A model generated the notes under the pieces. The model searched no databases. It worked only from the letters and a program-made list of their open reading frames with translations, and was not told the origin of the DNA. This document shows, one piece after another, positions 4,129-47,434 of a DNA stretch of 64,000 bases. A program made the position numbers and the translations under genes. The DNA is from a virus (lineage: Duplodnaviria; Caudoviricetes): positions 23,681 through 87,680 of the IMG/VR virus record IMGVR_UViG_2862178590_000001; one strand, given 5' to 3'. The number at the start of each line of letters is the position of its first letter. The first letter of the stretch is position 1.

Positions 4129-4130
4129 GG

Positions 4131-6953: not shown

Positions 6954-6970
6954 GGAGGAGGTGCTGCTGC

Positions 6971-9704: not shown

Positions 9705-9719
9705 CAGATCCTCCAGGTC

Positions 9720-10496: not shown

Positions 10497-10505
10497 CCCC
10501 TCAAC

Positions 10506-10580: not shown

Positions 10581-10774
10581 CATCCCTCCTGCTCGATGGG
10601 GGCGAGGAATTCGTCGGGGCCCGGCAGGCCGTGGCAGGCCATGTAGTCGGCGAGTTCCTCCATAGAAAGGAACGGGCCCGCGAGATGGCCCGCGTTGTGG
10701 GCGTACCAGCGGACGTGGAAGCCGCCGAGCCGGTCGGCATCCAGCTCATTGGCGTGTCCTCGCAGCGCGGTCAC
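10577..10774 (-). CDS. Hypothetical protein (65 aa)
   Basis: GTG overlaps portal TGA; TALRGHANELDADRLGG...EQEGW. Confidence 0.55.
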   Translation of the reverse strand: MTALRGHANELDADRLGGFHVRWYAHNAGHLAGPFLSMEELADYMACHGLPGPDEFLAPIEQEGW

Positions 10775-12297: not shown

Positions 12298-13790
12298 GGG
12301 TCACCCCCTGTCAGGATCGGGAAGCTGCCGATCGACGGGACCGCCGGTACGGGCCTGTTGCTGCTCGTGGCGTTCGGGTCGAGAACTGGGGCCACCGGAT
12401 CCGGCGCCGGGAAGTGGAAGCGCGCCCCGCCACCCAAGTTGATCAACAGGTAGCGGCCCGCGTCGTATGCATGGTCCTCGGCGTTGGTGTCGACGTCCTC
12501 CGGGTTGCCGCTCATGGCATGTGGCAGGACCGGCAGCGTGCGGATCAGATTCGCGCAGGTCGTGAACACGTGCACCTTCGGGCACGTCTCCCAGCCCTGG
12601 GCACGGTGGTGCGGGCAGGCCGGGGCTTCCGCAAGGTAGGAGTGCCAGCGCTGCAGCCCGGACAGGCGGGAGCCAGGCCCCTTGCCTGCCGGGGTGAGCG
12701 GCACGCCGTGCTGGCCATAGACGTCGGCAACAGCCTGCGCGTCGCCCCGGGTTGCCCACATCGAATCGTCGGCGTAGCGGGCCGCAACCTGCTCGTCCGA
12801 CCCTTCGGCGGCCAGGATCCGGCGGGCCTGTTCGGCCTCGCCGACCTGGGTGGCGTACAGCTCGCGGTAGAACCAGACCCGACCGTCCTCGTCGACAGCC
12901 GCCCACAGCACACACCAGGGAGCGGTGTAGCCCCAGTCGATACCGACATAGCGACGCCACGATGCGGGAAGGGCGATCGGGGCGATGGTGTGGCGGTCGT
13001 GCCGCCATTCGCTGAGGGCCTGTCCCATGAAAGAGTCCCAGTCCCCGTCGAGGAAGGCCCGGCGGAGCTTGTCCGGGAGCGCTTTGAGGTCGTCGGCGTA
13101 CTCGGGATTGATGTGCGGGTTGTCGGTGAGCTTGGACGGGATGAAGCGGACCGTCCTGCCGCGCTCGTCGATGACGACACGCTGCCCGTAGCCGGTGGCG
13201 TCGACATACCGCTGCTTGACCGTGCCGTGTCCTGGGCCGCCGGGGTTGGTGCCGGCTCGCACTCCGATGACCGGTACGTCGCCGCGGCCGGTGCGCAGCC
13301 GCGACTCCAGGAACGCGACTACGTCGGGCGGGGTCAGTGTCAGCTCGTCGAACATCAGCAGCTGGTACTGGCCGCCCTGGCGGCGGGTGGAGTCCTTGAG
13401 GGACTCGGCGTAGCGGAACATCAGGAGACTGCCGTTGGGGAAGCGCAGTTCGTATTCGGTGCCGTTCCAGGAGGCCCCGAGAGCTCCGGCGTAGCCGACC
13501 GCCGCGAGTTCGGCGAGCAGGGATTCCTTGAGCTCGCCGTAGGTGCGGCGGAATGCCCCGACGCGGATTCCGGGGTAGCGGACGCAGGCCCGGATCGCCT
13601 CCATGGTCAGTGCCTTCGACTTGCCCCCGCCGGCCGCGCCGCCCATGAGGACGGCGAATTCCTCGGCGTCGTGGAACAGCTGCTGCCGGGCGGTGGGGGT
13701 GTAGTCGAGGAGGCCGAACACGTCGATGCGGCGGAGCCGTTCGGCCTCGCGTCGCCGGACTTCAGCCTGGAGGGCTTTCAGCTCCTCCAT
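12285..13790 (-). CDS. terL: Terminase large subunit
   Basis: Walker A GGAAGGGKS, Walker B LLMFDE, GTNPGG coupling motif, nuclease GIDWG and EDHAYDAGRY; start position uncertain. Confidence 0.95.
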   Translation of the reverse strand: MEELKALQAEVRRREAERLRRIDVFGLLDYTPTARQQLFHDAEEFAVLMGGAAGGGKSKALTMEAIRACVRYPGIRVGAFRRTYGELKESLLAELAAVGYAGALGASWNGTEYELRFPNGSLLMFRYAESLKDSTRRQGGQYQLLMFDELTLTPPDVVAFLESRLRTGRGDVPVIGVRAGTNPGGPGHGTVKQRYVDATGYGQRVVIDERGRTVRFIPSKLTDNPHINPEYADDLKALPDKLRRAFLDGDWDSFMGQALSEWRHDRHTIAPIALPASWRRYVGIDWGYTAPWCVLWAAVDEDGRVWFYRELYATQVGEAEQARRILAAEGSDEQVAARYADDSMWATRGDAQAVADVYGQHGVPLTPAGKGPGSRLSGLQRWHSYLAEAPACPHHRAQGWETCPKVHVFTTCANLIRTLPVLPHAMSGNPEDVDTNAEDHAYDAGRYLLINLGGGARFHFPAPDPVAPVLDPNATSSNRPVPAVPSIGSFPILTGGDPWAL

Positions 13791-14295
13791 CTTCTGAATC
13801 TTGAGCTTCAATAGCGGCGAGCTGTTCCCGGGCTTCGATGAGGGCGTGGTCGAGGGCATCGACGGTGAACACCCCCTCGATCCTGGTGGCGGCGTCAAGA
13901 CCTCGCAGCTTTGCCACCCGGTCGCCGATCTTCACAAGCCGGTCCATGGCCGCCAGCTTCGGCCCCGGATCGAGCAGTGGCTGACCCGTCTCAGGGTCCT
14001 CGACGAGCCTCCCGCCAGGCGTGATCACGTAGTGCCGGGCGCGCATCACCACGTGAGCTTCTTCGGCGAGGTGCTCCAGCTCGGCGAGCTGTTCTTCGCG
14101 GTACACCTCGACACCGATGCGGAGTCCGGCGATGTTCTCTTCCAGCGTCCGGTAGAAATCCTTGGACGCGGCGTTGGCGTTGGCGTACCCAAGTTCCTCG
14201 TAGATCTGCGAATACGGGACTTTACGGCGCCGGTACTCGACGAGCTTGGCGCGCCGGTCGGCGGTCGCGGCGCGTTCAGCGCGGGGACGTGGCAT
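13762..14295 (-). CDS. terS: Terminase small subunit
   Basis: N-terminal HTH (YSQIYEELGYANANAASKD), RVAKLRGLDA motif, overlaps terL start. Confidence 0.8.
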   Translation of the reverse strand: MPRPRAERAATADRRAKLVEYRRRKVPYSQIYEELGYANANAASKDFYRTLEENIAGLRIGVEVYREEQLAELEHLAEEAHVVMRARHYVITPGGRLVEDPETGQPLLDPGPKLAAMDRLVKIGDRVAKLRGLDAATRIEGVFTVDALDHALIEAREQLAAIEAQDSEDGGAESPPG

Positions 14296-14734: not shown

Positions 14735-15061
14735 TCAGGTGATGGTGAGCAGGCCGACGTTGATGACCGGGATCTCGGGACTGTCCATGATTTTGATCCA
14801 TATGGTGTAGGTGCCCGGGGTGAGCGTGACCGTGCCGCCGGGCCCGACCAGGCACTGTGCCAAGTAAGCGTTGCCGGGCGGGCGGGGCTGGGTGCCGTCC
14901 CAGGACCCGGCTTTCCAGTCGGGCCCGGTGGGGGTTCCACTGCCGGTGAGGAACGCGAACTGCACGACGTCACCGGTCGGGTTGAGGGGGTTCCCGCCGA
15001 CGGTCGCGATGACCGACGCCTGGACGTACTGGAGGCTTGCCGCGGACTGTGTGATCGTCAC
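14735..15061 (-). CDS. Small Ig-like (BppU N-terminal-like) structural protein
   Basis: 108 aa, LTPGTYTIWIKIMDSPEIPVINVGLLTI C-terminus; GTG overlaps upstream stop. Confidence 0.55.
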   Translation of the reverse strand: MTITQSAASLQYVQASVIATVGGNPLNPTGDVVQFAFLTGSGTPTGPDWKAGSWDGTQPRPPGNAYLAQCLVGPGGTVTLTPGTYTIWIKIMDSPEIPVINVGLLTIT

Positions 15062-16797
15062 TTGCCCCCCTTGGCGCGCCATCGGTGAATCATGCGCGTG
15101 ATCCGCCAGCGCGGGTCGGGGTCCGGGCCCGTCTGCCAGCGGCCCTGCCCCTGGCCCACCTGCCACCGGCCGGGCCCCGCAGATACGGCCCACCGCAGGA
15201 GCGGGCCGACGGCCCGGACCACGAGATCGCCGGAGCGCGCGAGGAGCATCGTGGTGGCCGAGTTGGTGGCGACGGTCGCGGCGAGCCGCTGGATGTAGCG
15301 GCGGGCGCTGACGATGCCTGTCGTCACCGTTACGGTGGCCTGGCGGGTGATGGCCGCCGCCCGGGCGGCCGTGCCGGTGGCCGTCACGGCTGCCTGCCGG
15401 ATCAGCATGGTCGAGCGCTGCACCGCCGGAGCCGCGTCCACCGCCGCGGTGCGCCGCAGGCCGACCACCCTGCCGATGCTGCCGGTAAGCCCGGCGACCG
15501 CCGCGAGGGCGATGGTGCGCGCACCTTGCAGCGCCACGCTGCCGGTGGTGGAGGTGGTGGCAGCCAGGGTCCGCAGGAAGTGGCGGGCGCTGGCCGCCGC
15601 AGCAGTCACGGCCACGGCGGCCGGGCGGGCGAGCGCGGTTGCGCGTTGCAGGGTCGCCCTGTTCGTCGCGGCGGCAGCCCGGCCGAGGCCGGTGGCGCGC
15701 AGCACCGACGGGCTGCTGGTCGCGGTGGCCGTGAGCGTCGTCGCCCACGCGCGGACGGCACTCACGCCGGTCGCGGCGATGGCGGTACGTCGGAGTGCCG
15801 CAGCCCGCAGCGCTGTTGCGCCTGCCGCCATGCTGGCCGTCAGGACTGTCGTCGAGGTACGGACGGCGTTCGCGCTCGTCGAGACCGTGGCCGTCAGCCT
15901 GGTGGTCAGGGCCCGCTGTACACCGGCCGCTGTGTTCGCCGTCGCCGCCAAGGTCTTGGCCGTCATCCGGCCGACTGTGGAGAGCGTCGTCGCCGTGGCG
16001 GTGCGGGCCAGTCCGGCAAGCCGCTGGGCGCCGGCGGCGGTCGAGGCGGTTGCGGCCAGGGCGCGGGACCATGTCATCCGTATCGCGGCCGTGGCGCCGG
16101 CACTGACTGTCGCCGTTCTGGCCAGGCCTGCGGCGCGCGCCGCAGAGGCCGTGCCGGTGACCGCCGCCGCTTTGGCCAGCGCCGCAGCGCGCGCCAGGGA
16201 CACGCTGGTGGTGGCCGTGGCCGTAAGCGCCTTGGTCACTGCCCGGACCAGGCTGGTCGCCGTGGCGAGGGTTGTCAACCGTGGCAGAGTCGTGGCTCGC
16301 CGTGAGCCGCCCGTTGTTCCGGCGGTGCCCTGGCGGCTGAGCGTCCCGGTGCGAGTCACGCCCGCCGCCGTCGCGGCCGTGACCGTGCGGGCGAGTGCTG
16401 CGGTGCGGGTGACGCTGAGGGTGGTCGTGGTCGTGGCGGCGCGGGGCAATGCCGTGGCGCGCTGGGGTGTCGCGGTGCTGGCGATGCTCGAAGTCCGGGG
16501 CAGGCCCGTCTGTCGCAGCGTCCCGGCGAGCGTACCGGTCGTTCCCGCCCGCTGAAGTCCAGTGAGCCGCTGAACTGTCGAGGTCGTGGCTGCCGCCGCC
16601 GATCGGGGCAGCCCCGCCAGCCGCAGGACCGTGGCGCTGGTGAGTGCCGTTGCCGTTCTGGGCAGTGCCGTCAGCCGCACGAGGTTGCCGCCGGTCGACA
16701 CGGTCGCCGTGGCGCTAATGTTGTAGTTGTGGGGGCCTGTGGTGAGGTCGGTTCCGAGGCGGATCCGGTCTGGGATCGACCGCCCGAGACGTGCCAC
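15058..16797 (-). CDS. Ala/Thr/Arg-rich repeat protein, putative fibre
   Basis: 579 aa with about 18-aa Arg-anchored period (RMTAKTLAATANTAAGVQ / RALTTRLTATVSTSANAV / RTSTTVLTASMAAGATAL ...). Confidence 0.65.
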   Translation of the reverse strand: MARLGRSIPDRIRLGTDLTTGPHNYNISATATVSTGGNLVRLTALPRTATALTSATVLRLAGLPRSAAAATTSTVQRLTGLQRAGTTGTLAGTLRQTGLPRTSSIASTATPQRATALPRAATTTTTLSVTRTAALARTVTAATAAGVTRTGTLSRQGTAGTTGGSRRATTLPRLTTLATATSLVRAVTKALTATATTSVSLARAAALAKAAAVTGTASAARAAGLARTATVSAGATAAIRMTWSRALAATASTAAGAQRLAGLARTATATTLSTVGRMTAKTLAATANTAAGVQRALTTRLTATVSTSANAVRTSTTVLTASMAAGATALRAAALRRTAIAATGVSAVRAWATTLTATATSSPSVLRATGLGRAAAATNRATLQRATALARPAAVAVTAAAASARHFLRTLAATTSTTGSVALQGARTIALAAVAGLTGSIGRVVGLRRTAAVDAAPAVQRSTMLIRQAAVTATGTAARAAAITRQATVTVTTGIVSARRYIQRLAATVATNSATTMLLARSGDLVVRAVGPLLRWAVSAGPGRWQVGQGQGRWQTGPDPDPRWRITRMIHRWRAKGGK

Positions 16798-25249: not shown

Positions 25250-25789
25250 TCACTGCTGGTTGTTGGTCTTGGCCCAGACGCCGATGGTCTTGCTCTGGCG
25301 CTGGTCCTGGTGGACGTGGGCGTCGCCGTTGAAGTGGTTGTGGACCTCGGCGGGAGCCGCCTCGCCGGCCTCCGTGGCGCCGCGGATCAGCCGGGCGATG
25401 GCGAGGATCGGCACGGCGACCGCGGCGGGCGCTGCGCAAATCCAGGCGACCACCGTCGGGTTGGCCTGCCCGGAGGCGAGCAGTGTGCCGATCAAAATCA
25501 GGCCGGGCGGGACGGTCGCAACTCCGCAGAACAGGGCGGTGCGGCCGATGTCCGTCGAGCGCTGCGACATGGGCGGAATCCCTGGTTGCGGCACCGGCAG
25601 GGCGGTGCCGATTTGGGGGCCGTCCGTCCACGACGGGACGGTCGGGTCAGCGGTGCGGTACGACGTCTGCAAGCCCTCGGCGAGAGCGGCCTCGACGGCT
25701 GCGGCGGTGAGGCGGGCGAGGTCACGGTCGGCGGGGGTGGGGTGCCGCTGCCCGGCTGTGGGGCGCGGCTCGGGCAGCGGCATGTTCAT
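25250..25789 (-). CDS. Two-TM membrane protein (plasmid spread-type)
   Basis: ATG overlaps TGA of upstream gene; two hydrophobic helices. Confidence 0.65.
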   Translation of the reverse strand: MNMPLPEPRPTAGQRHPTPADRDLARLTAAAVEAALAEGLQTSYRTADPTVPSWTDGPQIGTALPVPQPGIPPMSQRSTDIGRTALFCGVATVPPGLILIGTLLASGQANPTVVAWICAAPAAVAVPILAIARLIRGATEAGEAAPAEVHNHFNGDAHVHQDQRQSKTIGVWAKTNNQQ

Positions 25790-26376
25790 CAGGGACCGAC
25801 CTTGCTCGGCACTTTGGCCGTCGTGGGCGTGCTGGGGGTGGTGTTCTTCGGCGTGGTGTCGGCGACTTGGGCGTACCAGGCGCCGCCGACGGTCTTCCCG
25901 CTGTGTTTCTGGCGTTCGTGGGTACGCAGCGCGGCGGTTGCGGCTTTGGCATCGCGGTAGCGGGGCTTCTCCTTCTTCCCGCAGGGGCAGGCCCAGCCGA
26001 CGAGGCCGGAGTGCTTGTCGGGCCCGAAGCGGGCGGCCATCGCGACGCGCATCCGTCCGGCCTTGGCCTTGGTCGGTTTGGCGGGGCAGGGCTTGGAGCC
26101 GGTGAACGAGCCGTCCTTGCCCTTGGTGAAGATCTGCCCGTTGCCCTTGCAGCGCGGGCATCCCTCGTGGGTCATGCGGAGGATTGCGGCGTCCTTGCGG
26201 GAGTTGACGGCCTGGAGGTGCTTTTCGCCGTGCTTGGCGACGAAGAACGCGAGCCAGGTAGCAGCCCGCCGTCCGAGCGGGCCGCCGCGGGGCCGGCGCG
26301 TGCTGCGGGCGCGGGACACCGGCTTGCGGCGGCGTGGTGCGGTCCGTTTACGGGGGGCCGGCTTCCTCGTGGCCAT
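25789..26376 (-). CDS. Basic Zn-finger protein of plasmid/AICE transfer-region type
   Basis: Arg-rich N-terminus, CPRC, CPCG...H..QKH motifs. Confidence 0.65.
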   Translation of the reverse strand: MATRKPAPRKRTAPRRRKPVSRARSTRRPRGGPLGRRAATWLAFFVAKHGEKHLQAVNSRKDAAILRMTHEGCPRCKGNGQIFTKGKDGSFTGSKPCPAKPTKAKAGRMRVAMAARFGPDKHSGLVGWACPCGKKEKPRYRDAKAATAALRTHERQKHSGKTVGGAWYAQVADTTPKNTTPSTPTTAKVPSKVGP

Positions 26377-26420
26377 GATCGGCAACTCCCTTTCTAGAAC
26401 TTCACATATATGGATCAATA

Positions 26421-26571
26421 GGGCGTCCAGAGGGCGTCCCGACCCCGTCCACGCCCCGTCCAGAGGGCGTCCCACCTGCGGACCTGGACAGCAACTGGAC
26501 AGCCCCAGGGCGGGCCTGGGACGGACCTGGGACGGGAGCAGGACGGGGGTCAGGACGGGGCAATCAGGACA
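26421..26571. repeat. clt-like locus: two oppositely oriented arrays of 11-bp-phased repeats
   Basis: CGTCC at 26424, 26435, 26446, 26457, 26468; GGAC(A/G) at 26486, 26497, 26519, 26530, 26541, 26553; directly 3' of traB. Confidence 0.75.
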
Positions 26572-28607
26572 GAGGCCGCCTGCTCGACGATCTCCCGATC
26601 CCAGCCGCGGACCCGCCGGTCCCCGGCGTAGTCCCGCCGCGAAACGGCGTTGGCCACGAGACTGTCGAGCAGGCCCTGCAACTCGCCGCCGTCGGCTGCA
26701 ACACCGAACTCGACGATCACTGCGGTCGGGAGCCAGTCGGCTCCCTTGTCATCGAAGAGCTTGAGCAGCTGATGGAGGGTGATCGCGTCTTCCTTCATCG
26801 TTTCCCGCGCGAACTCGGCGAGCTGCTCGGTGAGCGACCGTCGCTGGCTGCCCGCCGTCAGGCCCTCGCCGGCTTCGAGGAGCGTGTCGGCGTCCAGCCG
26901 GTTGGCGCCCGCCTTAATTCGGGCGGGTACCGCTTCGAGGATCTGGTCGCGGGTGAAACCGTTGAAGCGGTGCCGGATGGCCCGGTTGAAGCCGCCGCCC
27001 ATGATGAACGACTGCCCGGCATCATTGACGATCTCTCCGACGGCGGGTTCGAGCCGGTCCGGCCGCCAGCCGACGGCGCCCTTGCCGGGGCCGAACAGGA
27101 GGCGGATGTCCTCGAAGCGGCAGGCCATGCCAATGCGGAACGGCACGATGCCGGCGATGGCGTCGCCGAGGGCATCCTCAGTGGCTTCCTGCCCGGCAAA
27201 GATCAGGTAGATGCCGTACTGCCGTCCCGTGCGCAGGAGCTGGATGGCTCGCTCCTTGCCGCGCGGTGACAGCTGGAGGAACTCGTCAATGAAGATGTAC
27301 AGGTGAGGGTGCTTGGCGCTGGCCTTCCACCGGTCACCCATCTTCAGACGGGCCATGACCTTGGACCGTGCGGTAACGAACTTCAGAGCCCGCTCCAGCG
27401 CCTCCTCGCAGGCCTTGGGGTCACGAGCCCGCAACTCCATGAGGTCGCCGAATTCGTCGAGGCCGCCCTTGAGGGGATCAAGGTCCCAGCACACGGCGTC
27501 GATGCAGGCGGTGAGGGCCTCAGCGACGGTACGCAGGGCGCCCAGAGTCTTGCCTGCACCCATGGCGCCGATGATGAGGGCGCAGAACCCGTCGAGGGTG
27601 AGCTCGAACGTCGAGCCGTCCATAGCCCGCCCCATGACGATGTTGTCGTGGACGGACAGCGAGTGGGGGGCATGGATGCTCGGGCGTGCCATGTCGGCGA
27701 ACGGGTCAGATTGGACGAGCCGCATCGTGAGGTGGGCGGCGCGCTGGGGGTCGGTCTCGAACATGGTGCCGCCCTGCGGGATGTCGAAGAGGGCGTCGAG
27801 GTCATCGAGGACAGCGCTGACCGCTGCGGGTTTGCTGGCGTTGAGGACGACGTCGAGTTCCCAGCCCCAGCCGCGGTATCCGAGAACCTGCACGCTGCGT
27901 GTGCCAATGCCCTTGTGGGCGAGCGCGCGGGAGACGCACTCTTCGACCTGGCCCGGCGACTGGCACATGGCGAGCGGGAACGGCTCGTCGGAGTCGGGGT
28001 TGTCGGGGTCGGCGATGATCTGCTCGGGCGCGATGCTGGGGCTGTTGAGCCGGTAGCGGCCGTACAGGGTGAGCAGCGTTCCGGCGACCAGGCCGGTGAA
28101 CGCGGGGGTGACGGTCCACGACCAGTCGAGGGCGGTCAGGCCGCCGAACTTGACGAGCGCCCACCAGCCGGCCAGATTCAGCGCGGCTGTGGCGCCGGCG
28201 GTCCAGCCGAGCGTCCACCAGCGCTTGCGGCGGACGATTTCGACCTTGTTCCAGTGCCCGGAGTTCGACATGCCGCCGAGGACTTCCTGGAGATCGTGGG
28301 CGCGGGCGTAGCGGTAGCCGAGGACGCAGGACGACTTCAGCCCGTGACCGAACCAGCCGGCCGCCATCCACGTGCCGCGGGCGGACAGGCCGAGCATCCG
28401 GCCCGTCACCGAGGCGACGACCATGGCCGCCCCGCCAGCCTGATACAGGACCGGGCGACGGTACGGACGGACCTCGATCACACCCGGGGCAATGTCGTCC
28501 TCAGGCTCGTCGGCATCCGCGGGTGCGGCGTCTACAACCTCGCCGGGGATCACCTTCGTCAGGTCCCAGTCGGCGGGGAGCTGCGGGCGGGCTTCGGTCG
28601 TCATCAC
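26550..28607 (-). CDS. traB: TraB-like FtsK/SpoIIIE DNA translocase
   Basis: N-terminal TM helices, Walker A GAMGAGKT, Walker B YIFIDEF, GRQYGIYLIFAGQ, RIGMAC motif, C-terminal wHTH-like tail. Confidence 0.88.
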   Translation of the reverse strand: MMTTEARPQLPADWDLTKVIPGEVVDAAPADADEPEDDIAPGVIEVRPYRRPVLYQAGGAAMVVASVTGRMLGLSARGTWMAAGWFGHGLKSSCVLGYRYARAHDLQEVLGGMSNSGHWNKVEIVRRKRWWTLGWTAGATAALNLAGWWALVKFGGLTALDWSWTVTPAFTGLVAGTLLTLYGRYRLNSPSIAPEQIIADPDNPDSDEPFPLAMCQSPGQVEECVSRALAHKGIGTRSVQVLGYRGWGWELDVVLNASKPAAVSAVLDDLDALFDIPQGGTMFETDPQRAAHLTMRLVQSDPFADMARPSIHAPHSLSVHDNIVMGRAMDGSTFELTLDGFCALIIGAMGAGKTLGALRTVAEALTACIDAVCWDLDPLKGGLDEFGDLMELRARDPKACEEALERALKFVTARSKVMARLKMGDRWKASAKHPHLYIFIDEFLQLSPRGKERAIQLLRTGRQYGIYLIFAGQEATEDALGDAIAGIVPFRIGMACRFEDIRLLFGPGKGAVGWRPDRLEPAVGEIVNDAGQSFIMGGGFNRAIRHRFNGFTRDQILEAVPARIKAGANRLDADTLLEAGEGLTAGSQRRSLTEQLAEFARETMKEDAITLHQLLKLFDDKGADWLPTAVIVEFGVAADGGELQGLLDSLVANAVSRRDYAGDRRVRGWDREIVEQAASVLIAPS

Positions 28608-29932
28608 TGGTCCTTCTGGCGGCTGTCGGCGGCTGCGTGGCGGGCGGTGATGGAGGCCTGCTTACGGGCGGCCTTCACGTACCTGGGGGTGTCGCCGCGG
28701 CTGCGTACACCGCGCACTTTCGGCCCCGTCCTGGGAGTGGGGGGCATTTGTGCAGCACGCTGCGTGTTCTTGACCTTGGCGGCGGTGTTCACGGTGGTGT
28801 TCTGGCGGGCCGCTTCGACCCGGGTTTCGGCGGCGTTGCGGGCCCGGATCACCTCGGCGGATTCGCCCGGGTCGGTGCCCTCGATGTCGCGGTGCGCGCG
28901 CCGCCAGACAGTCTCGGTGACGGTCGTCTCCCCGACCGCCGCGGCGAGCTTCAGGGCGTGCTCCCACACCTTCGGGAACTGCCGGGCGCGGGATTCGGCC
29001 AGCTGCTCTATGGCTTCGGCTGCGGCCTTGTCGGCGGCTTCCTTCTCGGCCTGGCTCCGCGCCTCCTCGGCAGCCTTGCGGACGGCCTCGGCGCGCTCAG
29101 TCTTCCGCTGCTCCCGCCGCTGCTTGCGGGTCGGGATGCCGTCGCGCTTCCGGATCCGGCCGTGCTCGTGGAGATCCCATACGCCGGGTCCGGCGATCGA
29201 CGCGAACGCGGTTCCGATCGCGGTGGCCGGGTCGAACGCGTTGAGGCCGTGCCACAGGTTGATGCCGGCCGCGATGAACGCGAACAGCCAGGCGATCAGC
29301 CGGTAGTGCCAGCACGCCCGGCGGGCGGCAGAAGCTGCAGCCGCACCCTTCTGGACGACCCAGGCGGCGCCTTCGAGCATGAGGGGGGCGGCCATCAGCC
29401 AGACGGCGTGCGGGTTGTAGAACGCGGCGATCTGCACGGGCAGGGCGACGATGGCGCACACGATGTAGAAGCCGCGGGCGTATCCGCGCCACTGCGACTC
29501 GGCCGCCTCGGACTCCATCGCGTCTTTGGCGTCGGCGGCCTCCTGTTCGGCGGCCTGCCGGGCTGCATCTTGGCGAGCCCGGTCGGCGTCCTCGCGGCGC
29601 CGGTTGTGGTCGGCGATCCGCGCGTCCGAGGCGGCTTCCTCCTCGCGGGCCTTGCGTTCGGCCCGGTCGTTGGCCAGCCGCAGCTTGCGGGCCTCCTCCT
29701 CCGCCCTGACGATCTCTGCCTGGGCGGCGGCTTCGGCGGCGATACGAATGGCTTCGGCGTCGGCCCACGCCTGGGCGCGGATCGCTTCGGCCTGGGCCTG
29801 TGCCACGACGTCCGGCAGGGGGGCCGTGTCGGGCTCGTCGGCAGGTTTCGGGTCGGTGGTGACGGCCCGCCAGTCCCCGAGTACGGGCATGGCCGGCCGC
29901 TGGTGGCCGTTCAGAGGCGGGCTGACAGTCAT
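28604..29932 (-). CDS. SpdB-like (DUF2637-type) membrane spread protein
   Basis: Coiled-coil N-terminus, four TM segments, basic C-terminus; stop overlaps traB start. Confidence 0.7.
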   Translation of the reverse strand: MTVSPPLNGHQRPAMPVLGDWRAVTTDPKPADEPDTAPLPDVVAQAQAEAIRAQAWADAEAIRIAAEAAAQAEIVRAEEEARKLRLANDRAERKAREEEAASDARIADHNRRREDADRARQDAARQAAEQEAADAKDAMESEAAESQWRGYARGFYIVCAIVALPVQIAAFYNPHAVWLMAAPLMLEGAAWVVQKGAAAASAARRACWHYRLIAWLFAFIAAGINLWHGLNAFDPATAIGTAFASIAGPGVWDLHEHGRIRKRDGIPTRKQRREQRKTERAEAVRKAAEEARSQAEKEAADKAAAEAIEQLAESRARQFPKVWEHALKLAAAVGETTVTETVWRRAHRDIEGTDPGESAEVIRARNAAETRVEAARQNTTVNTAAKVKNTQRAAQMPPTPRTGPKVRGVRSRGDTPRYVKAARKQASITARHAAADSRQKDQ

Positions 29933-29953
29933 GGCGCGCGGTGTCCTTCCGGT

Positions 29954-31243
29954 TCAGTGGTGGGTGTGGCGGCGTGCGGTGTGGCGGGCGTTGCTGCGGG
30001 TCAGGACCGTGCGGGTGATCACGAACGCGGAGATTGCGGCGGCGACGGCGAGGAGCCCGTTCGCGCCGAGGTGGGCTGCGCCGTGTCCGGCCAGGTAGCC
30101 GGTGGTGCAGGCGGTGATGAACGTCAGCAGGTCGACGACGCTGGACGTCCGGCGTGTGGCGGGCTGCCGGGCTGGCCGGTTCAACTGACGCCCCGGTACG
30201 CGGCGAAGGCGAGAGCGGCGAACGAAGCGAAGATCGCGAAGGCGGAGAACAGACGCATGACTTGGTCCTTACGGGCTGGGTGCGGGATGGTCAGTAGTGG
30301 TCGAGGTCGTTCGCGGCGCGGCGGGTCTTGGCGGCCCAGTCCTCGCAGACCTCGGCCTTCTCCGTCTCGCCCTTGGCACGGAACTCCTGGGCTTGGCGTT
30401 CGGCGTCGGCGGCGGCGTCGCGCTTGCCCTGCGGCGTGTCAAACGGGTCGGACGACTTGCGGCTGAACAGGCCCATGGCGGGCTCCCTCGGGTCAGGTGG
30501 TTTCGGTGGCCGGGCGGTCCCAGCCCTTGCGGAACTCGTTCATGAACTCGGCGGTGACCTGCGCCCCGACGACCGCGCCGAGCGGCGGCAGCCCGGTGCG
30601 TTCGGCGGCCCAGAACTCGATGCGCATCACCACCTCGGCGAGGTAGATGACGGCCGGCCGGGTGCAGCGGACCGCGAACGTGACCGCGCCGATCAGGACC
30701 ATCACGCTCATCGCGGCGAGGCGCACCGTCCACGCCCACCCGGCGGCGAGCAGTCGCTGCCATGCCGCAGGCTTCGCGGTGATCACATAGGCGTGCACGG
30801 TGAACCTCCCTCAGATCAGGCGTGCGGGTTGCGATGGAAACGCTGTCCTGGCCCCTCGCCGCCGGTACGGGGACCGGCAGTGAGGGCAGCCGTCAGCGGC
30901 CGTTGATCTCGGTGACTCGGGCGTGCTCGCCCCATCCGTCTCGGAGACGGACGACCGTGAAGTAGTTGCCGCCGACGTCCGTGATGCGGTGCGGCTCGCC
31001 CTTGTACTCGACGTCCGTGCCGACCTGGTCGACGTTCGGGTGCTTCGGGTTGGTGATCCGGTGCATGCGGTTCCCTTCTCGGTTCGGGCCGGACTGTCCG
31101 GCCGCCGCACCCCACACCCGGACGACGGTGTGGAGCACAGCGGGCGGACAGCGTCAGCGGGGGTCGGCGGCGAGCACGTAGACGGTGAAGGCGACCATGG
31201 CGACGATCCACAACATCGACGCGGCGATCAGGACGTAGACCAC
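29954..31243 (-). other. Small ORFs upstream of spdB-like gene (29954-30184, 30181-30258, 30291-30476, 30493-30798, 30893-31066, 31154-31243)
   Basis: Short ORFs, several hydrophobic, including MRLFSAFAIFASFAALAFAAYRGVS and MVYVLIAASMLWIVAMVAFTVYVLAADPR. Confidence 0.5.
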
Positions 31244-31246
31244 GGG

Positions 31247-31570
31247 TCACACCACCCCACCGTCGCCGGTCTTGACGAGCACCCCGGACGGGGACCGCCG
31301 GTAGACGCGGGCTGCGTTGGCGCGGAGCTTCGCCTCGACCGCCTCGCCCAGGTCGATGCCCGTCATCTCGGCGAGCCCGACGAGGTACAGCTGCACGTCG
31401 GCCAGCTCCGCACCGAAGCCGGGCAGGCCCTGGCGCCATGCCGTGAACGCTTCGCCGACCTCGGCGGTCAGCAGACCGAACTCCAGCGGCACGTCCGTGA
31501 CGTTGAAGCCCTTCGCGAGCTTGTTGTCCCAGGCCGCAGCCTGGATCTCCGGCAGCGTCAGCGCCATCAC
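31247..31570 (-). CDS. MazG-like nucleotide pyrophosphohydrolase
   Basis: LLTAEVGEAFTAW...GAELADVQLYL (ExxE...ExxD) motif. Confidence 0.85.
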   Translation of the reverse strand: MMALTLPEIQAAAWDNKLAKGFNVTDVPLEFGLLTAEVGEAFTAWRQGLPGFGAELADVQLYLVGLAEMTGIDLGEAVEAKLRANAARVYRRSPSGVLVKTGDGGVV

Positions 31571-32624
31571 GCCTCACCCCCGTCGTCGGCCAGGTCGTGA
31601 CTGCCGGGCTCGCACTCGTCGACCCAGCAGCGATGGACAGGGCAGACGTCCGGGTCCGGAGTGAACAGCCCGTGCCACGAGCCTTCCGGCCTCGTCGGCG
31701 CCAGGGTCGCGGCGGTCACGACTCGTCCCCGGGCTCGACGTCGGCGAGGACGTCTCCTCCGAAGAGGTGCAGCAGGCCGTCGGCCAAAACCTCCAGGCGG
31801 CCGTTCATCTTCGCCACCGCGCTGGCGTCGCCCGTGGGTTGCGCCTTGGACTCGGCCACAACTCCAGCCGCCCACAGGAGACATCGACGCTCGGCGTCCG
31901 TCAGATCGGGGCGGCTCATGACCTCTCACCGCCGCCGCGGAGGAGGGCCTCCGCCTCAGCCACGAGCTCGCCAGCGTCCACGGCGTGCGCCTCGGCACCC
32001 GCCTCCGCCGCCAACCGCAGCCGCTCCACATCCGCCTCAGTCAGGCGGACCGTGCCGACCAGATCCCCACCCGGAGTGAGGACGATCAGACGGACCGCCG
32101 TCCCCGTGTCGGGGCTCATCCCGCCCAGCGCCAACTGCAACTCGATCGCCCGCAGCGCATCGTGTCCCAGCCCGGCCATCACGCCTCCTCCTCACCGGAG
32201 GACGCCCGAAGCTGCGCGTCGAACAGCTCGGCCTCGACATCGACACAGTCACCGGACAAGATCCGCTGATAGACCTGCTCGCTCTCGGCGGACATACGGT
32301 CCTGGAAGTCAGCCATCACGCCACCTCGCTGTACTGCGCGCCGAACAGCTCGATCGCGTGCAGCTCGTCATACAGCGACGGCTCAACGGGGTGCGCCTTG
32401 TCGTAGCGGGAGGCCTCGTTGAGAAGCTGGATCTCAACGTCCCAGTCGCCGCGAGCCAGGGCGTACAACTCGATCAGCCGGGCACGGTAGGCGGAGTCAT
32501 CGGCGTCGAGCTCGGCCTTCGTCGGGGCCGGGGTGCCGAGGACGCGGCGCAGAGGCTCGCGGGATGCGGCGGTGGAGAGGGGGGTGTACTGGTGATCGCT
32601 ACCCGGGCGGAGAGTGATAGTCAT
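31567..32624 (-). other. Small hypothetical ORFs (31567-31719, 31716-31919, 31916-32182, 32179-32319, 32316-32624)
   Basis: Chain of ATGA/GTGA-overlapping ORFs. Confidence 0.55.
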
Positions 32625-33313
32625 GACCGGTCCTTCTTCCTTGCTTCGTAGCGGCTTTGAGCAGCGGCTCGGCAAGCACGGCAGTGCTTGTAGCCCTTCG
32701 GGTCTACGTAGGTGTTGAGGAGGTCGAGGGCGTGCCCCTTCGCGCAGGACTCGGCGCCGCGGTGGCGCCTTGGCGCGGTGGGCGCATCCAGGTCGATCGG
32801 TGCTTGCTGAAGAGGAGCACCAGTCGCAGCGGCGTACCGCTCGCGCCCCAGCGTTATGGCGCAAGTGCGGCAGCTACGGCCGCCATCAGGCGTCACCTGG
32901 ACGTTGCTGCCGGACAGCGGGTGTCCGCGCTTGCAGTGGGTCTTGTTCGCATTGATCGCAGCCGGAGCGATCGGGGAGCGCATGATGTTCTCGCGGCAGG
33001 TGACGGGCTCCAGGTGCTCCGGGTTGCAGCACGGCGGGTTACGGCAGAGGTGATCTGTGTGTAGCCCCTGCTCGATCGGGCCCGTCGTGATCATGTACAT
33101 CAGGCGGTGCGAATAGACCACCGTCCCCGCGAGCCTGTATCGCCCGTATCCCGTCGGGAATCGGCGACCGTTCCAGATCCAGCAACCGCTCGCGTCGAGC
33201 GAAACGAGCGACCACACGTGGTCGAACTGCTCCTGGGTCAGCTGCACTTCACGGCCGTCCGGGAGTCGCATGGGCTTCAGCGTCTTGAAGTTGGGCTTCG
33301 TCGGGGTGTTCAT
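32621..33313 (-). CDS. HNH endonuclease (homing-type) with C-terminal Zn-finger repeats
   Basis: CWIWNG...GYG...YSHRLMY...DHLCRNPPCCNPEHLE; KTHCKRGH and CAKGH repeats. Confidence 0.9.
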   Translation of the reverse strand: MNTPTKPNFKTLKPMRLPDGREVQLTQEQFDHVWSLVSLDASGCWIWNGRRFPTGYGRYRLAGTVVYSHRLMYMITTGPIEQGLHTDHLCRNPPCCNPEHLEPVTCRENIMRSPIAPAAINANKTHCKRGHPLSGSNVQVTPDGGRSCRTCAITLGRERYAAATGAPLQQAPIDLDAPTAPRRHRGAESCAKGHALDLLNTYVDPKGYKHCRACRAAAQSRYEARKKDRS

Positions 33314-33540
33314 CAGGCCACTTCACCCGCAGCAACCCGCGACTTGTGCAGGTACTCGACGACGGCGGACTCCGGGATGCGCAGTCCGCGCCGTCGCACC
33401 GACCCACCGCCGATGCGGTGGGCGCGCAGGTCCCCGTTGTCGATGAGTCTGTAGATCGTGGATACGTGAACGGTGAGGCGCCGCGCCAGTTGACCGGCAG
33501 TGTGGAACTGCTCTGCCTGCGGCGGTACTTCTTCGCACAT
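33313..33540 (-). CDS. Excisionase-family HTH protein
   Basis: HTAGQLARRLTVHVSTIYRLIDNGDLRAHRIG...LRIPESAV. Confidence 0.85.
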   Translation of the reverse strand: MCEEVPPQAEQFHTAGQLARRLTVHVSTIYRLIDNGDLRAHRIGGGSVRRRGLRIPESAVVEYLHKSRVAAGEVA

Positions 33541-33580
33541 GCGGGCTCCATCGGAAAGTGGGACCCGGTGGGTCGCCAAG

Positions 33581-33625
33581 TTCTACGTAGAAGCCAGTGA
33601 AGCCATGTTCTACGTAGAAGTCAAG
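33581..33625 (-). promoter_or_regulatory. Two TTCTACGTAGAA operators with TTGAC -35-like element
   Basis: Perfect palindromes at 33581-33592 and 33608-33619; minus-strand CTTGACTTCTACGTAGAAC. Confidence 0.8.
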
Positions 33626-33640
33626 CTCTCCCGAGGAACC

Positions 33641-33669
33641 AAAAAAGCCCCCACCGAAAGGTGGGGGCT
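33641..33669 (-). terminator. Rho-independent terminator of the GntR gene
   Basis: 10-bp stem AGCCCCCACC/GGTGGGGGCT followed by T6 on minus strand. Confidence 0.85.
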
Positions 33670-33683
33670 GCGGGCCGGAACTC

Positions 33684-34442
33684 CTAGGACTTGAAGGCGT
33701 ATTCAAGGATGTACTTGGCCGAGCTGAGGGTCATCTCATTGGTCTCAACGACCCGCCCCTCAGCGTCCATCGCATAGCGAGCGATGATCACAACAGGGGT
33801 TCCCGGGCCCAGCGCCAAGTCCTCAGCCTCTTGCGGCCGTGGCATCCGAACCCGAATCTCCTCTCGGAAGTCGACCGGCCCGTGCCCAACATCCGCAAGC
33901 CGCCCATAGATGCCGCCAGCTCCCGTATCCAACTCGGCGATGGGCGTCCCGGAGGCGAGGTCGGCCGGGATGTAAGAGACCGCCCTCATGACCGGCTCTC
34001 CGTCAACGCAGTAGCGCCGCGAGCGGCGCCAAGCCGTTGCACCCTCCTCAAGATCGAGGGCCGCAGCAACGAGGGCGGGCGGCTGGACCTCGTCAACCGA
34101 GAGGTCTTCAACGGTGCGCGGCCGATCCGGGGCGTCGATGTCCCACATCGAGACCCCGTCGCCCCAGACCTCGACCGAGAGCCGCTTCGTCGCATTGCGA
34201 CGAATGGGCATGAAGTCACGCACCACGGTGCCGACACCTTGTCTTGCTTCGGTCAGGCCTTCATTGGCGAGTTCGGCCAGCACCTTACGGGCCGTGTCGG
34301 CGGACACCTCCCAGCGCTTGGCGATCTCAGGCTCGCTCGGAACCTGATCACCGGGAGCGAGTGCGTGGCTGTAAATCTTCTCGCGCAGTTCACCAGCGAT
34401 GACCACGTGCTTGGCAGGCTTCCGCGGTGCCCGATCTGCCAC
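33684..34442 (-). CDS. KorSA-like GntR/UTRA repressor
   Basis: N-terminal wHTH (PSEPEIAKRWEVSADTARKVL...QGVGT) plus UTRA domain; GAGGAGGG RBS before GTG. Confidence 0.9.
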   Translation of the reverse strand: MADRAPRKPAKHVVIAGELREKIYSHALAPGDQVPSEPEIAKRWEVSADTARKVLAELANEGLTEARQGVGTVVRDFMPIRRNATKRLSVEVWGDGVSMWDIDAPDRPRTVEDLSVDEVQPPALVAAALDLEEGATAWRRSRRYCVDGEPVMRAVSYIPADLASGTPIAELDTGAGGIYGRLADVGHGPVDFREEIRVRMPRPQEAEDLALGPGTPVVIIARYAMDAEGRVVETNEMTLSSAKYILEYAFKS

Positions 34443-34460
34443 TTTCCCTCCTCGATCAAC

Positions 34461-34544
34461 TTCTACGTAGATCAGGCTAGTGCCCGCATGCGAATACAGC
34501 GAACATGGCGACTCTTGCAAGACTCCTTGACTTCTACGTAGAAC
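34461..34544. promoter_or_regulatory. Two further TTCTACGTAGA(A) operators in divergent promoter region
   Basis: 34461-34471 and 34532-34543; plus-strand CTTGACTTCTACGTAGAAC identical to the minus-strand copy at 33607-33625. Confidence 0.8.
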
Positions 34545-34691: not shown

Positions 34692-35147
34692 ATGAGCGTA
34701 GCAAGCGAGCACGCAAGCCCCCAGCCTGTCTCCACCCCGACGTCCCCCGCCTCGCGACTGGTCCCTGCTCTGGTCCACGGCCAGCGGATCTTTGTTGAAT
34801 GTCCGTCGTGGTGCATCGTCGATCACGTCAAGCTGCACACCGGCGCGGTCGAGGACATCACGCACTGGTCGGAGGGGGCGGGCATGCAGGTGTTGACGAT
34901 GCTCGATCCTCGGGCGGCGCATTCGGACCTGTTCGCCCGGGTCAATTCTGATCCTGCGCACGGCGATCCACGGATGCGGGCTGCGCATGTTCTGGTGGGC
35001 AACGAGTCGGCGGTGGACGCGTTCCTGACGCCGGACATGGCGGACGAGCTGGCGGCCGATCTGGTCGCGTTCGCTGCGGCGGTTCGTCGTGCGGCTCGGA
35101 CGGCGCGGCGGGCGAACGAGGCCAGCGGCGTGGAGGTGCCAGCATGA
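34692..35147 (+). CDS. DUF6907-like protein
   Basis: ECPSWCIVDH...DITHW motif; GGAG RBS. Confidence 0.7.
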   Translation: MSVASEHASPQPVSTPTSPASRLVPALVHGQRIFVECPSWCIVDHVKLHTGAVEDITHWSEGAGMQVLTMLDPRAAHSDLFARVNSDPAHGDPRMRAAHVLVGNESAVDAFLTPDMADELAADLVAFAAAVRRAARTARRANEASGVEVPA

Positions 35148-35314
35148 GCCAGCTGGTGATCGAGTCGTTCCCTGCGGGTGGTCCGCGTGGCTCCTGGCCT
35201 GCGGAGGAGTTCGCGCGTGATCGCCGCAAAGAGGGCGTCAAGGCCGAGGTCGTGATGGACATGGACGCCGATGCGTTCCTCGTCATCGTGCCGCAGCGGC
35301 GGGACGCTGGCTGA
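35144..35314 (+). CDS. Hypothetical protein (56 aa)
   Basis: ATGA overlap; MSQLVIESFPAGGPRGSWPAEEFA... Confidence 0.6.
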   Translation: MSQLVIESFPAGGPRGSWPAEEFARDRRKEGVKAEVVMDMDADAFLVIVPQRRDAG

Positions 35315-35403
35315 CGGCCCTGTCTCGTCCCCGGCCTGTCGTGGCTGGGGGTGTACGGCGGTGCGGGGTCGGCTCGTGCCGGGCTTCAAAAGCGGAGGTG
35401 GAC

Positions 35404-35484
35404 ATGCTCAGCAATTGTGATCACGAGTGGGTGCCGTGGAGTGGTCAGCCGCGGTGTCGTAAGTGTGGTGCGACGCAGGGCTGA
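35404..35484 (+). CDS. 26-aa Cys/His peptide MLSNCDHEWVPWSGQPRCRKCGATQG
   Basis: GGAGGTGG RBS directly upstream; precedes kinase gene. Confidence 0.5.
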   Translation: MLSNCDHEWVPWSGQPRCRKCGATQG

Positions 35485-35569
35485 TTGCTCTGGGTGAAGG
35501 GTGCGGGGTTGCTTGTGCGGTCCCGCACTGCTGTTGGAGCCTGTGGTCAGGATTGCCGGAAGGGGTGTC

Positions 35570-36364
35570 ATGAACTCTCGTACCGACTGGGCCGACCTGC
35601 CTGCGCCTGTCCGGGCCCAGGCGGTGGCTGAGGTGGGCCCGGTCGTGGACTGGGAGCCGGTTGGCAGCGGCCTGAACTGCAGGCTCGCCGTCCACCTCTA
35701 CACGGAAGACGGGTCCTGCCGGTTCGTGAAGGGCGTGCCGGAGGATGATGCGCACGGCGTGGCAGGGCAGGGCCGGGAGGTGGCCGTTTCTCGGGTTGCG
35801 GCTGGCGTCGTCGCGCCGGTGCTGTGGTCCCGGTTGTGCGGCGGCTGGGATCTGCTGGTGTTCCAGTGTGTGGGCGACCAGCATGTTGATCTGACGGCCG
35901 GGTCGCGGGACGTGGATCTGGTCGCCGAGACGCTGCACCGTGCGCAGGGGCTGAAGGCAACGGGCCTGGCGGTGCCGCGTCTCGCTGAGCGTTTCGAGGG
36001 GTTCCTCGACGAGGACGGGCTGCGGCTGCTCGACGGGGAGGCGTTGCTGCACACGGACACGAACCCGCACAACATGATCCCGTACCTGTCGCAGGTCTAT
36101 CTGGTCGACTGGGCGATGGCCGCGTCGGGCCCGGCCTGGGTGGATGTGGCGTACACGGCGGTGCGGCTGATGGAGGCCGGCTGGCCCGCGGCCGGCGCGC
36201 TGGAGTGGGCTGCCGGGTTCCGGTCGTGGCGGGAGGCGGATCCGCGGGCGGTGGCGGCCTTCGTGTCGGCGTCGTGCCGTCAGTGGGAGGCGATGGTCGG
36301 GCCGGTGGACTGCCGGCCGTCGAACCGCCGCTTCGAGGCCCTGTTGACCGCGGTCCACGCCTAG
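35570..36364 (+). CDS. APH/choline-kinase-fold phosphotransferase
   Basis: FVKG lysine, LLHTDTNPHN catalytic loop, LVDWA Mg-binding motif. Confidence 0.85.
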   Translation: MNSRTDWADLPAPVRAQAVAEVGPVVDWEPVGSGLNCRLAVHLYTEDGSCRFVKGVPEDDAHGVAGQGREVAVSRVAAGVVAPVLWSRLCGGWDLLVFQCVGDQHVDLTAGSRDVDLVAETLHRAQGLKATGLAVPRLAERFEGFLDEDGLRLLDGEALLHTDTNPHNMIPYLSQVYLVDWAMAASGPAWVDVAYTAVRLMEAGWPAAGALEWAAGFRSWREADPRAVAAFVSASCRQWEAMVGPVDCRPSNRRFEALLTAVHA

Positions 36365-36379
36365 CCCCGCACAGACGAC

Positions 36380-36409
36380 AGCGCCCCCGACCGTGAGGTC
36401 GGGGGCGCT
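36380..36409. terminator. Bidirectional terminator
   Basis: 13-bp perfect stem with GTGA loop between convergent genes. Confidence 0.8.
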
Positions 36410-46603: not shown

Positions 46604-47434
46604 CTAGCGCCAGTCGGGCAGGCTTCCCGCGCGGCGGCGGGTGTTGTAGGCGCGCACGACGATTTCGGAGACGCAGTGGGCGACGGTGCCGCCCTTGAAG
46701 TCGCGGGCTCCCCGGGCCTTTCCGAGCAGGCCGGAGGGGCCTGCCGGGAACTCGGCCAGCTTCTTGATCAGTGCGGGGAGTTCGACGACCTCACCGAACC
46801 GGTTGAAGATCGAGCCGATACCGAGGAGCACGTCGCCGTTGACGGCTTCGCTCTTGTAGCCCCAGGCCTCAGTGACGATCCGCAGTGTGAGAGTGAGAGC
46901 CCTCCCGGGGGCCATGGCCGGGTTCTGTGCGCGCTCGCCGTGGAAAAGCCGCTCCAGGCTCTTGACGGCCGTGATGGAGGTGGATCCGGCCTGGTCGCTG
47001 ATCCTCCAACCGAGGGATGTGGCGATTGCGCTAATAGCCACAGCGTCTGCTTCCCCGGCAGTGACGCGGCCCAGGAACTTGTAGACCGCCTTGACCTGGC
47101 GGCCGTCGTTGAGGCCCAGGAACAGGGCTGCCTCCTGCTGGAGGGTCAGGCCAGTAAAGACCTTGCATTCGATCTTCCGGGTGGGCCATCCGGCCTTCCG
47201 CAGTAGTTCGCCGCGGTTTTGGCCGTCGAGCCACACCTGCTCGCCGGAAGCCCGGCGGGACACGACGGGCACGCCCAGCCGCGTCAAGTCGAACCCTTCA
47301 CGGGCCTTGCGCTCGACCCAGGCGCTGTCCACCGGGCGGGTGTTGACCCGCGGGTCGCGGGTGATGTCGGCCGGTGAAAGCCACTCGATGGACGCAGTCT
47401 CCAGGCGAGCTGCGGGAATGCTAGCGAGTACCAT
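46604..47434 (-). CDS. ParB/Srx-fold protein (DUF6551-like, DGQxR motif)
   Basis: LGVPVVSRR...WLDGQNRG...EAALFLGLN. Confidence 0.75.
   Translation of the reverse strand: MVLASIPAARLETASIEWLSPADITRDPRVNTRPVDSAWVERKAREGFDLTRLGVPVVSRRASGEQVWLDGQNRGELLRKAGWPTRKIECKVFTGLTLQQEAALFLGLNDGRQVKAVYKFLGRVTAGEADAVAISAIATSLGWRISDQAGSTSITAVKSLERLFHGERAQNPAMAPGRALTLTLRIVTEAWGYKSEAVNGDVLLGIGSIFNRFGEVVELPALIKKLAEFPAGPSGLLGKARGARDFKGGTVAHCVSEIVVRAYNTRRRAGSLPDWR

Follow-up and report, generated by a model that had tools for sequence, protein, structure and literature searches.

Does a temperate phage of a mycelial bacterium carry, besides its virion genes, a plasmid-type apparatus for moving naked DNA? The question is raised by the region from 25.2 to 34.6 kb of the window, by which we mean the whole stretch of 64,000 nucleotides analyzed here (IMG/VR record IMGVR_UViG_2862178590_000001, positions 23,681 to 87,680). 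The window corresponds to positions 614201-678200 of contig 11 of an 8.58-Mb genome, and 40 kb of left and 20 kb of right flanking DNA were added for the analysis. Base composition over the whole window is that of high-G+C actinomycete DNA, and genes were called by third-position G+C. A first-pass annotation of this DNA had described an apparently intact prophage with a GntR/UTRA repressor and four operator palindromes, an SpdB-like membrane protein, a TraB-like FtsK translocase, a clt-like repeat array and further membrane and Zn-finger genes, mostly in the transcription direction of the phage, and had proposed that the phage circle could travel by conjugation as well as in virions. All of these components were recovered, the last group as membrane and Cys-rich genes, and the assignment to the tra/spd/kor type of Streptomyces plasmids was supported. 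On balance, we lean toward the interpretation that the region is a plasmid-type (pFP1/pSVH1-like) DNA-transfer module, integral to an 85-kb temperate siphophage, which would provide a capsid-free way of spreading. The features on which this interpretation is built are the following.

26428-26574: clt-like locus, two facing repeat arrays straddling the translocase stop codon
26550-28607, minus strand: TraB-like FtsK-fold translocase for double-stranded DNA, 685 aa
28604-29932, minus strand: SpdB2/DUF2637-like polytopic membrane protein, 442 aa, 4-nt overlap with the translocase start
33581-33619: operators O1 (33581) and O2 (33608), perfect palindromes at 27-bp spacing, flanked by the GntR terminator and the HTH_17 gene, upstream of the leftward operon from HTH_17 to the tra genes
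33646-33669, minus strand: intrinsic terminator 3' of the GntR gene, stem of 10 pairs and T tract
33684-34442, minus strand: GntR/UTRA (HutC-type) regulator, Kor/TraR-like, 252 aa, probable GTG start
34461-34472: operator O3, 11 of 12 positions matching, 19 bp upstream of the GntR start codon
34532-34543: operator O4, overlapping a hexamer (TTGACT) that resembles a -35 box and is oriented toward the rightward DUF6907 cassette

The translocase belongs to phrog_12531 of PHROGs (“FtsK/SpoIIIE-like,” 4.4e-83) and carries a Walker A motif at residues 347-354, a Walker B motif at 437-443 and a winged-helix-like domain at its C-terminus (residues ~590-685). K353 of Walker A and D441/E442 of Walker B were invariant across 18 homologues. 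In an AlphaFold (AF2) model built on these homologues the core, residues 205-580, reached a predicted local distance difference test score (pLDDT) above 90, and Foldseek aligned this core with the FtsK motor (6t8o/2ius) at an E value of 1e-14 and a target-normalised TM-score of 0.64-0.68, while a profile of the 18 homologues gave weak matches to FtsK and EccC chains. The protein thus has an FtsK/SpoIIIE-type motor domain with both Walker motifs. Residues ~606-670 were modelled as helix-strand-helix-helix-hairpin (pLDDT ~80), and from this topology, together with the middling structural scores reported below, the C-terminal domain is likely a winged helix. Homologues at E <= 1e-30 were found in 21 of 299 other genomes of the genus, only three of them close (48-53% identity). 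The translocases of the window and of the genomes termed G209, G158 and G110 form one clade with a support of 99 in the Shimodaira-Hasegawa-like approximate likelihood ratio test (SH-aLRT); the underlying tree is a quick one, with midpoint rooting used for drawing only.

Directly upstream, and overlapping the translocase gene, lies the gene for the SpdB2-like protein, which consists of a charged N-terminal part and a central hydrophobic core with two segments above a strict hydropathy cutoff; its place before the translocase and its charged N-terminus agree with SpdB2. The protein aligned with the DUF2637-annotated protein of plasmid pFP1 over the transmembrane core (31% over 107 aa, E 3.6e-10), although it gave no match of its own to the Pfam family DUF2637 (PF10935). 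When four homologues and the pFP1 protein were searched, two of the five aligned sequences matched PF10935, with a best E value of 0.002. Homologues were found in G110 (60% identity), G209 (45%) and G158 (44%). No match to the SpdB2-like protein was obtained in 50,697 phage records, where the best match to the GntR regulator reached 31%.

The regulator combines a GntR domain (Pfam, 5.2e-15) with a UTRA domain (5.9e-26) and falls into phrog_10724 (4e-52). The 12-bp palindrome TTCTACGTAGAA occurs four times, once with one mismatch, versus 0.24 occurrences expected, and 0 of 100 shuffles gave four. A GntR helix-turn-helix (HTH) joined to UTRA, with predicted palindromic sites at its own promoter and at that of the spd/tra operon, fits a regulator of the Kor/TraR type. 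In G158 a homologue with 47% identity stands in the equivalent place; the palindrome there is a different one, GCTCTAGAGC, present three times at positions matching those in the window, with two copies between the GntR and HTH_17 genes and one upstream of GntR.

At the 3' end of the translocase gene, units with a GTCC core are found on the coding strand at 26570, 26556, 26544, 26533, 26522, 26500 and 26489, and are faced by five GGACG units at 26472, 26461, 26450, 26439 and 26428, spaced at exactly 11 bp. A cis-acting clt is made of such adjacent short repeats, and we regard them as a putative docking site for the translocase. The experimentally defined clt of pWTY27 takes in the final 16 bp of traA plus 159 bp next to it, with direct and inverted repeats bound by TraA (PMC3583192), and like the array described here it straddles the end of the translocase gene. 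Two facing arrays followed by a conserved AT-rich patch were present in all four loci (window, G209, G110, G158). The unit itself varies: CCCGTCC in the window, CCCGTCT in G158 and G110, and GACCCGGC in G209. A constant layout with altered repeat and operator words is the pattern expected of a protein and its cognate site, and a link between the repeat unit and the recognition helix of the translocase is only suggestive.

All genes between 25.2 and 34.6 kb lie on the minus strand, the direction in which the phage is transcribed. In transcription order, the GntR/UTRA gene and its terminator are followed by HTH_17, HNH, two small open reading frames (ORFs), the MazG-like gene and the genes for an 81-aa protein, a 101-aa transmembrane (TM) protein, a 61-aa protein and a 76-aa TM protein; then come the SpdB2-like gene, the translocase, the repeat array, the Cys-rich gene and the gene for a two-TM protein. 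The genes around the transfer-like core are listed below, together with the cassette on the opposite strand.

25250-25792, minus strand: two-TM membrane protein, 180 aa, phrog_19266 (4.4e-39), start overlapping the stop of the Cys-rich gene
25789-26376, minus strand: basic Cys-rich protein (CxxC...CPC), 3' of the translocase in four of four loci at 52-68% identity, with the conserved AT-rich patch before the gene
29954-30184, minus strand: 76-aa membrane protein, predicted TM
30493-30798, minus strand: 101-aa membrane protein, Spd-like by position, kept in G209 (41%) and G158 (46%)
31247-31570, minus strand: MazG-like pyrophosphatase, phrog_3301 (1.1e-14), Pfam MazG-like below cutoff
32621-33313, minus strand: HNH endonuclease of phage type, Pfam HNH_3 (9.6e-11), phrog_826 (4e-51)
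33313-33579, minus strand: HTH_17/excisionase-type small DNA-binding protein, first gene of the leftward operon, Pfam HTH_17 (4.2e-10), phrog_66 “excisionase and transcriptional regulator” (2.6e-7)
34692-36409, plus strand: divergent cassette of a DUF6907 protein, a 56-aa ORF and an APH-like phosphotransferase, closed by a strong terminator (36380-36409)

The surrounding element was delimited by a perfect direct repeat of 141 bp (window -20987..-20847 and 64016..64156; L006:19013-19153 and L005:16-156), which encloses 85.0 kb. The repeat forms the 3'-terminal part of a gene for a sugar ABC transporter permease and encodes the C-terminus of this protein, so the phage brings a replacement C-terminus for its target gene. 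With 141 bp and no mismatch, the att repeat is unusually long. An empty attB was sought in 40 relatives, which were too distant, the match being limited to the conserved permease segment. Of three sequencing runs whose contigs were compared with the element, one is probably the source assembly, a second contains the same DNA in short contigs of low depth, and the third contains diverged fragments; none was informative on excision or joints. Structural, packaging and lysogeny genes were assigned as follows.

1701-2846, minus strand: tail tube
5490-6854, minus strand: capsid
10771-12297, minus strand: portal
12285-13898, minus strand: TerL
60939-61220, minus strand: AlpA/Xis-like gene, lysogeny region
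61243-61506, minus strand: Cro-like HTH_3 gene, lysogeny region
61730-62170, plus strand: repressor-like gene, lysogeny region
62276 to past the window end, plus strand: tyrosine integrase, just inside the right repeat copy, the only one of the element
16-156 bp past the window end: attR

The virion and packaging genes thus span 1701-13898 on the strand of the module, and the genes for the tape measure, a large tail protein, endolysin, a peptidase and fibres continue on this strand in the left flank (L004). A conventional switch of repressor-like, Cro-like and Xis-like genes adjoins the integrase gene, separate from the GntR locus. Terminase, portal, capsid, tail tube, tape measure, endolysin, integrase, repressor-like switch and att repeats together make up the equipment of a temperate siphovirus, and the element is an apparently complete 85-kb integrated temperate siphophage of a Streptomyces-type bacterium. 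Phage replication genes were not identified among the scanned ORFs, and a megablast search with 22-37 kb found no near-identical relative among deposited phages.

Related loci show that the block is a conserved, integral part of the phage genome. G209 holds a related prophage (TerL 71%, portal 50%, capsid 56% and tail tube 57% identical) in which the genes for the 101-aa TM protein, the SpdB2-like protein, the translocase and the Cys-rich protein lie ~13 kb upstream of terS-terL, matching the position observed here. G158 keeps the whole block, with DUF6907, GntR, HTH_17, TM protein, Spd, translocase and Cys-rich genes, and shares early genes as well; this locus, too, is a prophage, in which the sole Phage_portal match of the genome follows 9 kb downstream in the same orientation and is flanked by two integrases. 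From G110 only a 4.7-kb contig with the block was available. The search for the module in homologous prophages, which the first-pass annotation had named as a check, was thereby answered positively. A second well-supported TraB-like clade (30-34% identical) was found in three further genomes (G181:C11:74026-83872, G038:C44:40756-50862 and G025:C24:26054-37371), in each case 6-10 kb upstream of co-oriented TerL/portal genes, which makes the link with prophages a recurrent one.

Among known systems outside prophages, and among those whose function has been studied, the Streptomyces theta plasmid pFP1 (NC_006912) has the tra locus nearest in sequence, with a translocase 34% identical over 439 aa and the same gene order (GntR, three small genes, DUF2637, translocase). 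pFP1 has repA and iterons and lacks virion genes, and its repeat units differ from those found here. The likeness to pSVH1, a 12-kb rolling-circle plasmid, rests on described features instead of sequence. Its GntR regulator TraR acts on an inverted repeat upstream of the spd operon (SpdB3-Spd79-SpdB2; Thoma et al., 2015, PMC4447253), SpdB2 spans the membrane four times and has a coiled coil at its N-terminus (PMC4447253), and in TraB an FtsK-like motor is joined to a C-terminal domain for clt recognition, which reads 8-bp repeats (PMC4447253; Vogelmann et al., 2011). The nearest parallel in kind is the Streptomyces plasmid-phage pZL12/phiZL12 (GQ919031), which unites virion genes with a tra locus in a single replicon and shares the layout described here: GntR, small genes, a membrane protein and an FtsK/SpoIIIE-like gene are followed by packaging and virion genes on the same strand. 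[quoted passage not shown] Its regulator gene is divergent from the tra genes, while the regulator gene described here shares their strand, and pZL12 is a circular plasmid prophage with ParAB, whereas the present element sits in the chromosome with a tyrosine integrase and a 141-bp att repeat and shows no autonomous plasmid state of the pZL12 type (repA, parAB). Sequence similarity is negligible: of 140 ORFs in the element plus flanking DNA, only four gave a match, and each was weak (translocase 23%, E 5e-4; GntR 30%). The Amycolatopsis phage-plasmid pAmyja1 (NZ_CP008954.1, 92.5 kb, circular) has the virion module in common (TerL 70%, capsid 49%, tube 57%). On this plasmid a GntR gene is read divergently from an SpdB2-like gene, and a 737-aa FtsK-like gene (phrog_1358) is followed by a GGGGAC/GTCCCC repeat array; these tra-like genes (90095-92240 and 1399-3900; L055, L056) occupy another position than in our element. 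pAmyja1 is typed as non-mobilizable by PLSDB.

Could the block instead be an independent actinomycete integrative and conjugative element (AICE) or an integrated plasmid nested within the prophage? Its gene set does resemble the transfer and regulation modules of AICEs and plasmids. pSAM2, SLP1 and pMEA300 likewise combine chromosomal integration with an FtsK-like Tra, Spd-like proteins and a GntR repressor of the Kor type, and the G+C content dips to 0.64-0.66 at 32-35 kb. AICEs, for which PMC2440964 gives sizes of, e.g., 10.9-17.3 kb, bring their own Int, Xis and Rep, the latter being RepSA, RepAM or a primase-polymerase (Prim-Pol) (Ghinet et al., 2011, PMC3218068), and have no virion genes; here the sole Int of an 85-kb phage is that of the phage itself, and no such Rep was found. 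In six-frame searches the integrase gave the single PF00589 match on the 85-kb element, and neither a serine recombinase (PF07508) nor a Prim-Pol (PF09250) was detected on the contig. RepSA (PF20199) and RepAM (PF12307) gave no match in the genome, which is weak evidence, as both models were silent in the control genomes, too. Pfam revealed no replication family among the ORFs at 19-26 kb and 36-40 kb, and neither ParA nor Rep, only ParB_N-like proteins, appeared among the scanned ORFs. The lack of a Rep and of a second integrase, which the first-pass annotation had claimed for 22-37 kb, thus holds over the whole element, albeit weakly for RepSA/RepAM, and the att sites it had named as a possible mark of a separate AICE were looked for as well: within 18-40 kb only imperfect chance repeats were found, and no direct repeats flanked the block. 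Moreover, the related prophage of G209 holds the block at the equivalent place, and the operon also contains genes of phage type (HNH, MazG-like) among the others. Because no int or att of its own and, as far as the models reach, no rep was found for the block, and because it keeps its place in prophages and is mixed with phage genes, we reject a nested AICE as very improbable.

The transfer interpretation itself has to be weighed against two further explanations, and a number of findings count against it. At the level of the proteins, the translocase scored 42.7 bits with the NCBIfam model plasmid_TraB (NF041214), far below the cutoff of 800, and matched no Pfam family, FtsK_SpoIIIE (PF01580) included, at E <= 0.01; since curated family models were not passed, we class it as TraB-like and not as an equivalog. 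For its C-terminal domain the best Foldseek E value, 0.39, was not significant, with rows mostly of MarR-type and other winged-helix proteins, and VIA gave middling scores (Z 6.1 for Rex, 5.5 for a Crp/Fnr winged HTH). Residues 53-188 were modelled as long helices with pLDDT below 70, which makes the membrane anchor a low-confidence assignment, and no N-terminal segment exceeded the strict hydropathy cutoff. In G209, where a small HTH-like ORF lies upstream in the locus, tblastn found no GntR homologue. Finally, the stretch from the module to the late genes yielded no strong terminator, so the GntR-controlled promoter may feed late transcription as well, in which case the role of the repressor would be that of a phage regulator and not of a kor. 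Such readthrough would suit a module that serves the phage cycle inside one mycelium and conjugates with no separate recipient; possible tasks are the passage of replicated or infecting phage DNA across cross-walls to adjoining compartments or into prespores, DNA clearing or segregation, or a “kil”-like host takeover. FtsK-like genes of the same PHROG, phrog_12531, are annotated as single genes in 89 deposited Streptomyces phages (the best matches listed being ~131 kb), and their products, e.g., gp109 of phage Bordeaux, are 34-35% identical to our translocase over residues 160-670. In the 131-kb genome of Bordeaux, the one locus read, the gene stands alone among tRNA genes with no Spd-like or GntR gene annotated nearby. 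In the quick tree gp109 groups with traA of pFP1 (SH-aLRT 94) and not with the prophage clade, which indicates that large deposited Streptomyces phages carry a plasmid-type translocase lineage. Conjugation is implausible for such lytic phages, and their solitary genes hint at a role within the infection cycle; Thoma et al. (PMC4447253) also suggested that the SpdB2 homologues of some actinophages (phiC31 and VWB genome papers) aid the spread of phage DNA. The full kor/spd/tra/clt set, however, is the anatomy of the intermycelial transfer loci of pFP1 and pSVH1, and in plasmids one and the same TraB serves transfer as well as spreading, so that one role does not preclude the other. A purely intramycelial function appears to us rather unlikely, though its probability is not negligible. 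Less probable still, in our estimate, is that the GntR protein and its operators form a phage regulatory node for middle or late transcription or for the excisionase-like gene, with the tra-like genes as plasmid-derived passengers of little or no function. The GntR gene does stand in line with phage genes, an Xis-like gene is the first behind the operators, no terminator was found down to the late genes, and G209 retains its tra genes without a detectable GntR homologue. Yet the translocase, SpdB2-like, 101-aa TM and Cys-rich genes have stayed intact across four loci that have diverged to 47-68% identity, and the catalytic residues do not vary; the repeat unit changes along with the translocase, which argues for a maintained function, and a separate repressor/Cro/Xis switch is available beside int.

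A number of observations on the element and its host stand apart from these questions. Six further contigs of the genome (C2, C7, C14, C15, C22 and C44) hold eight Prim-Pol matches, two of them near tyrosine integrases (~3 kb away on C44, ~34 kb on C22); these are probably independent elements of the AICE type residing in this host. The left arm of the prophage carries genes for a Ku-like DNA-end-binding protein (L004:3799-4899, minus strand, phrog_4873, 3.8e-60) and for a Ro-like RNA-binding protein (L004:7113-8729, minus strand, phrog_850, 3.2e-54), the latter beside a tRNA-Ser gene (act anticodon, L004:9032-9116, minus strand). A Ro-like gene is also annotated close to the FtsK-like gene of Bordeaux. 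The tRNA-Ser gene was considered as attachment site and rejected, since its position is internal, ~10 kb in from the left end of the element, and the true repeat is in the permease gene. In the early region an adjacent pair of ParB-related genes (DUF6551 and ParB_N, 46604-48413, minus strand) was observed, for which no ParA was found; a homologous pair in pAmyja1 flanks a PAPS-reductase-like gene. Upstream of terS, an ORF of 579 aa (15058-16797, minus strand) shows an unusually high second-position G+C of 0.73 and is overlapped by a plus-strand ORF (15314-16555) of similar codon bias, which makes the gene call ambiguous.

How might a DNA-transfer module of this kind work within a temperate phage? 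In the lysogen, the GntR repressor would bind the four palindromes and silence its own gene, the rightward cassette and the leftward operon. A free double-stranded phage circle would arise through excision by the phage integrase or during replication. Once repression is lifted, hexamers of the TraB-like protein could dock via their C-terminal winged helix on the phased repeats at the 3' end of their own gene and pump the genome of the phage through septal cross-walls or into an adjacent hypha, with the SpdB2-like and small membrane proteins forming the passage. For the phage, the outcome would be a capsid-free route of spread beside its virions. From homology and anatomy, we infer that the phage circle may be transferred by conjugation in this way. 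It is a more tentative proposal, and one we hold with some doubt, that integrating Streptomyces phages of at least two translocase clades are dual-mode elements, in which the GntR-controlled TraB/clt/Spd set moves the entire genome as naked double-stranded DNA between compartments and mycelia after excision.

The idea of a dual route is not new in kind, as pZL12 is a published precedent, and its novelty had been overstated. The apparent novelty lies in the integrated state and in its repeated occurrence among prophages, with a translocase lineage differing from that of pZL12; no description of an integrated prophage with the full set of repressor, Spd, TraB and clt was found in the literature. 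The FtsK-like genes widely annotated in actinophages gain a testable role, and the co-varying pairs of translocase and repeat, together with the differing repressor/operator pairs of two loci, are suited to a study of how TraB reads clt. TraB systems are reported in PMC11571958 to mobilise chromosomal DNA, so prophages may also contribute to the exchange of chromosomal genes. Should the module be functional, a temperate phage whose host grows as a mycelium could spread without capsids, receptors or lysis, and host range, phage resistance and prophage epidemiology in Streptomyces would then have to be read differently. If the more tentative dual-mode proposal holds as well, receptors and adsorption-level resistance would be bypassed, and the “conjugative phage” would be a common life style in filamentous actinomycetes instead of a one-off curiosity between plasmid and phage.

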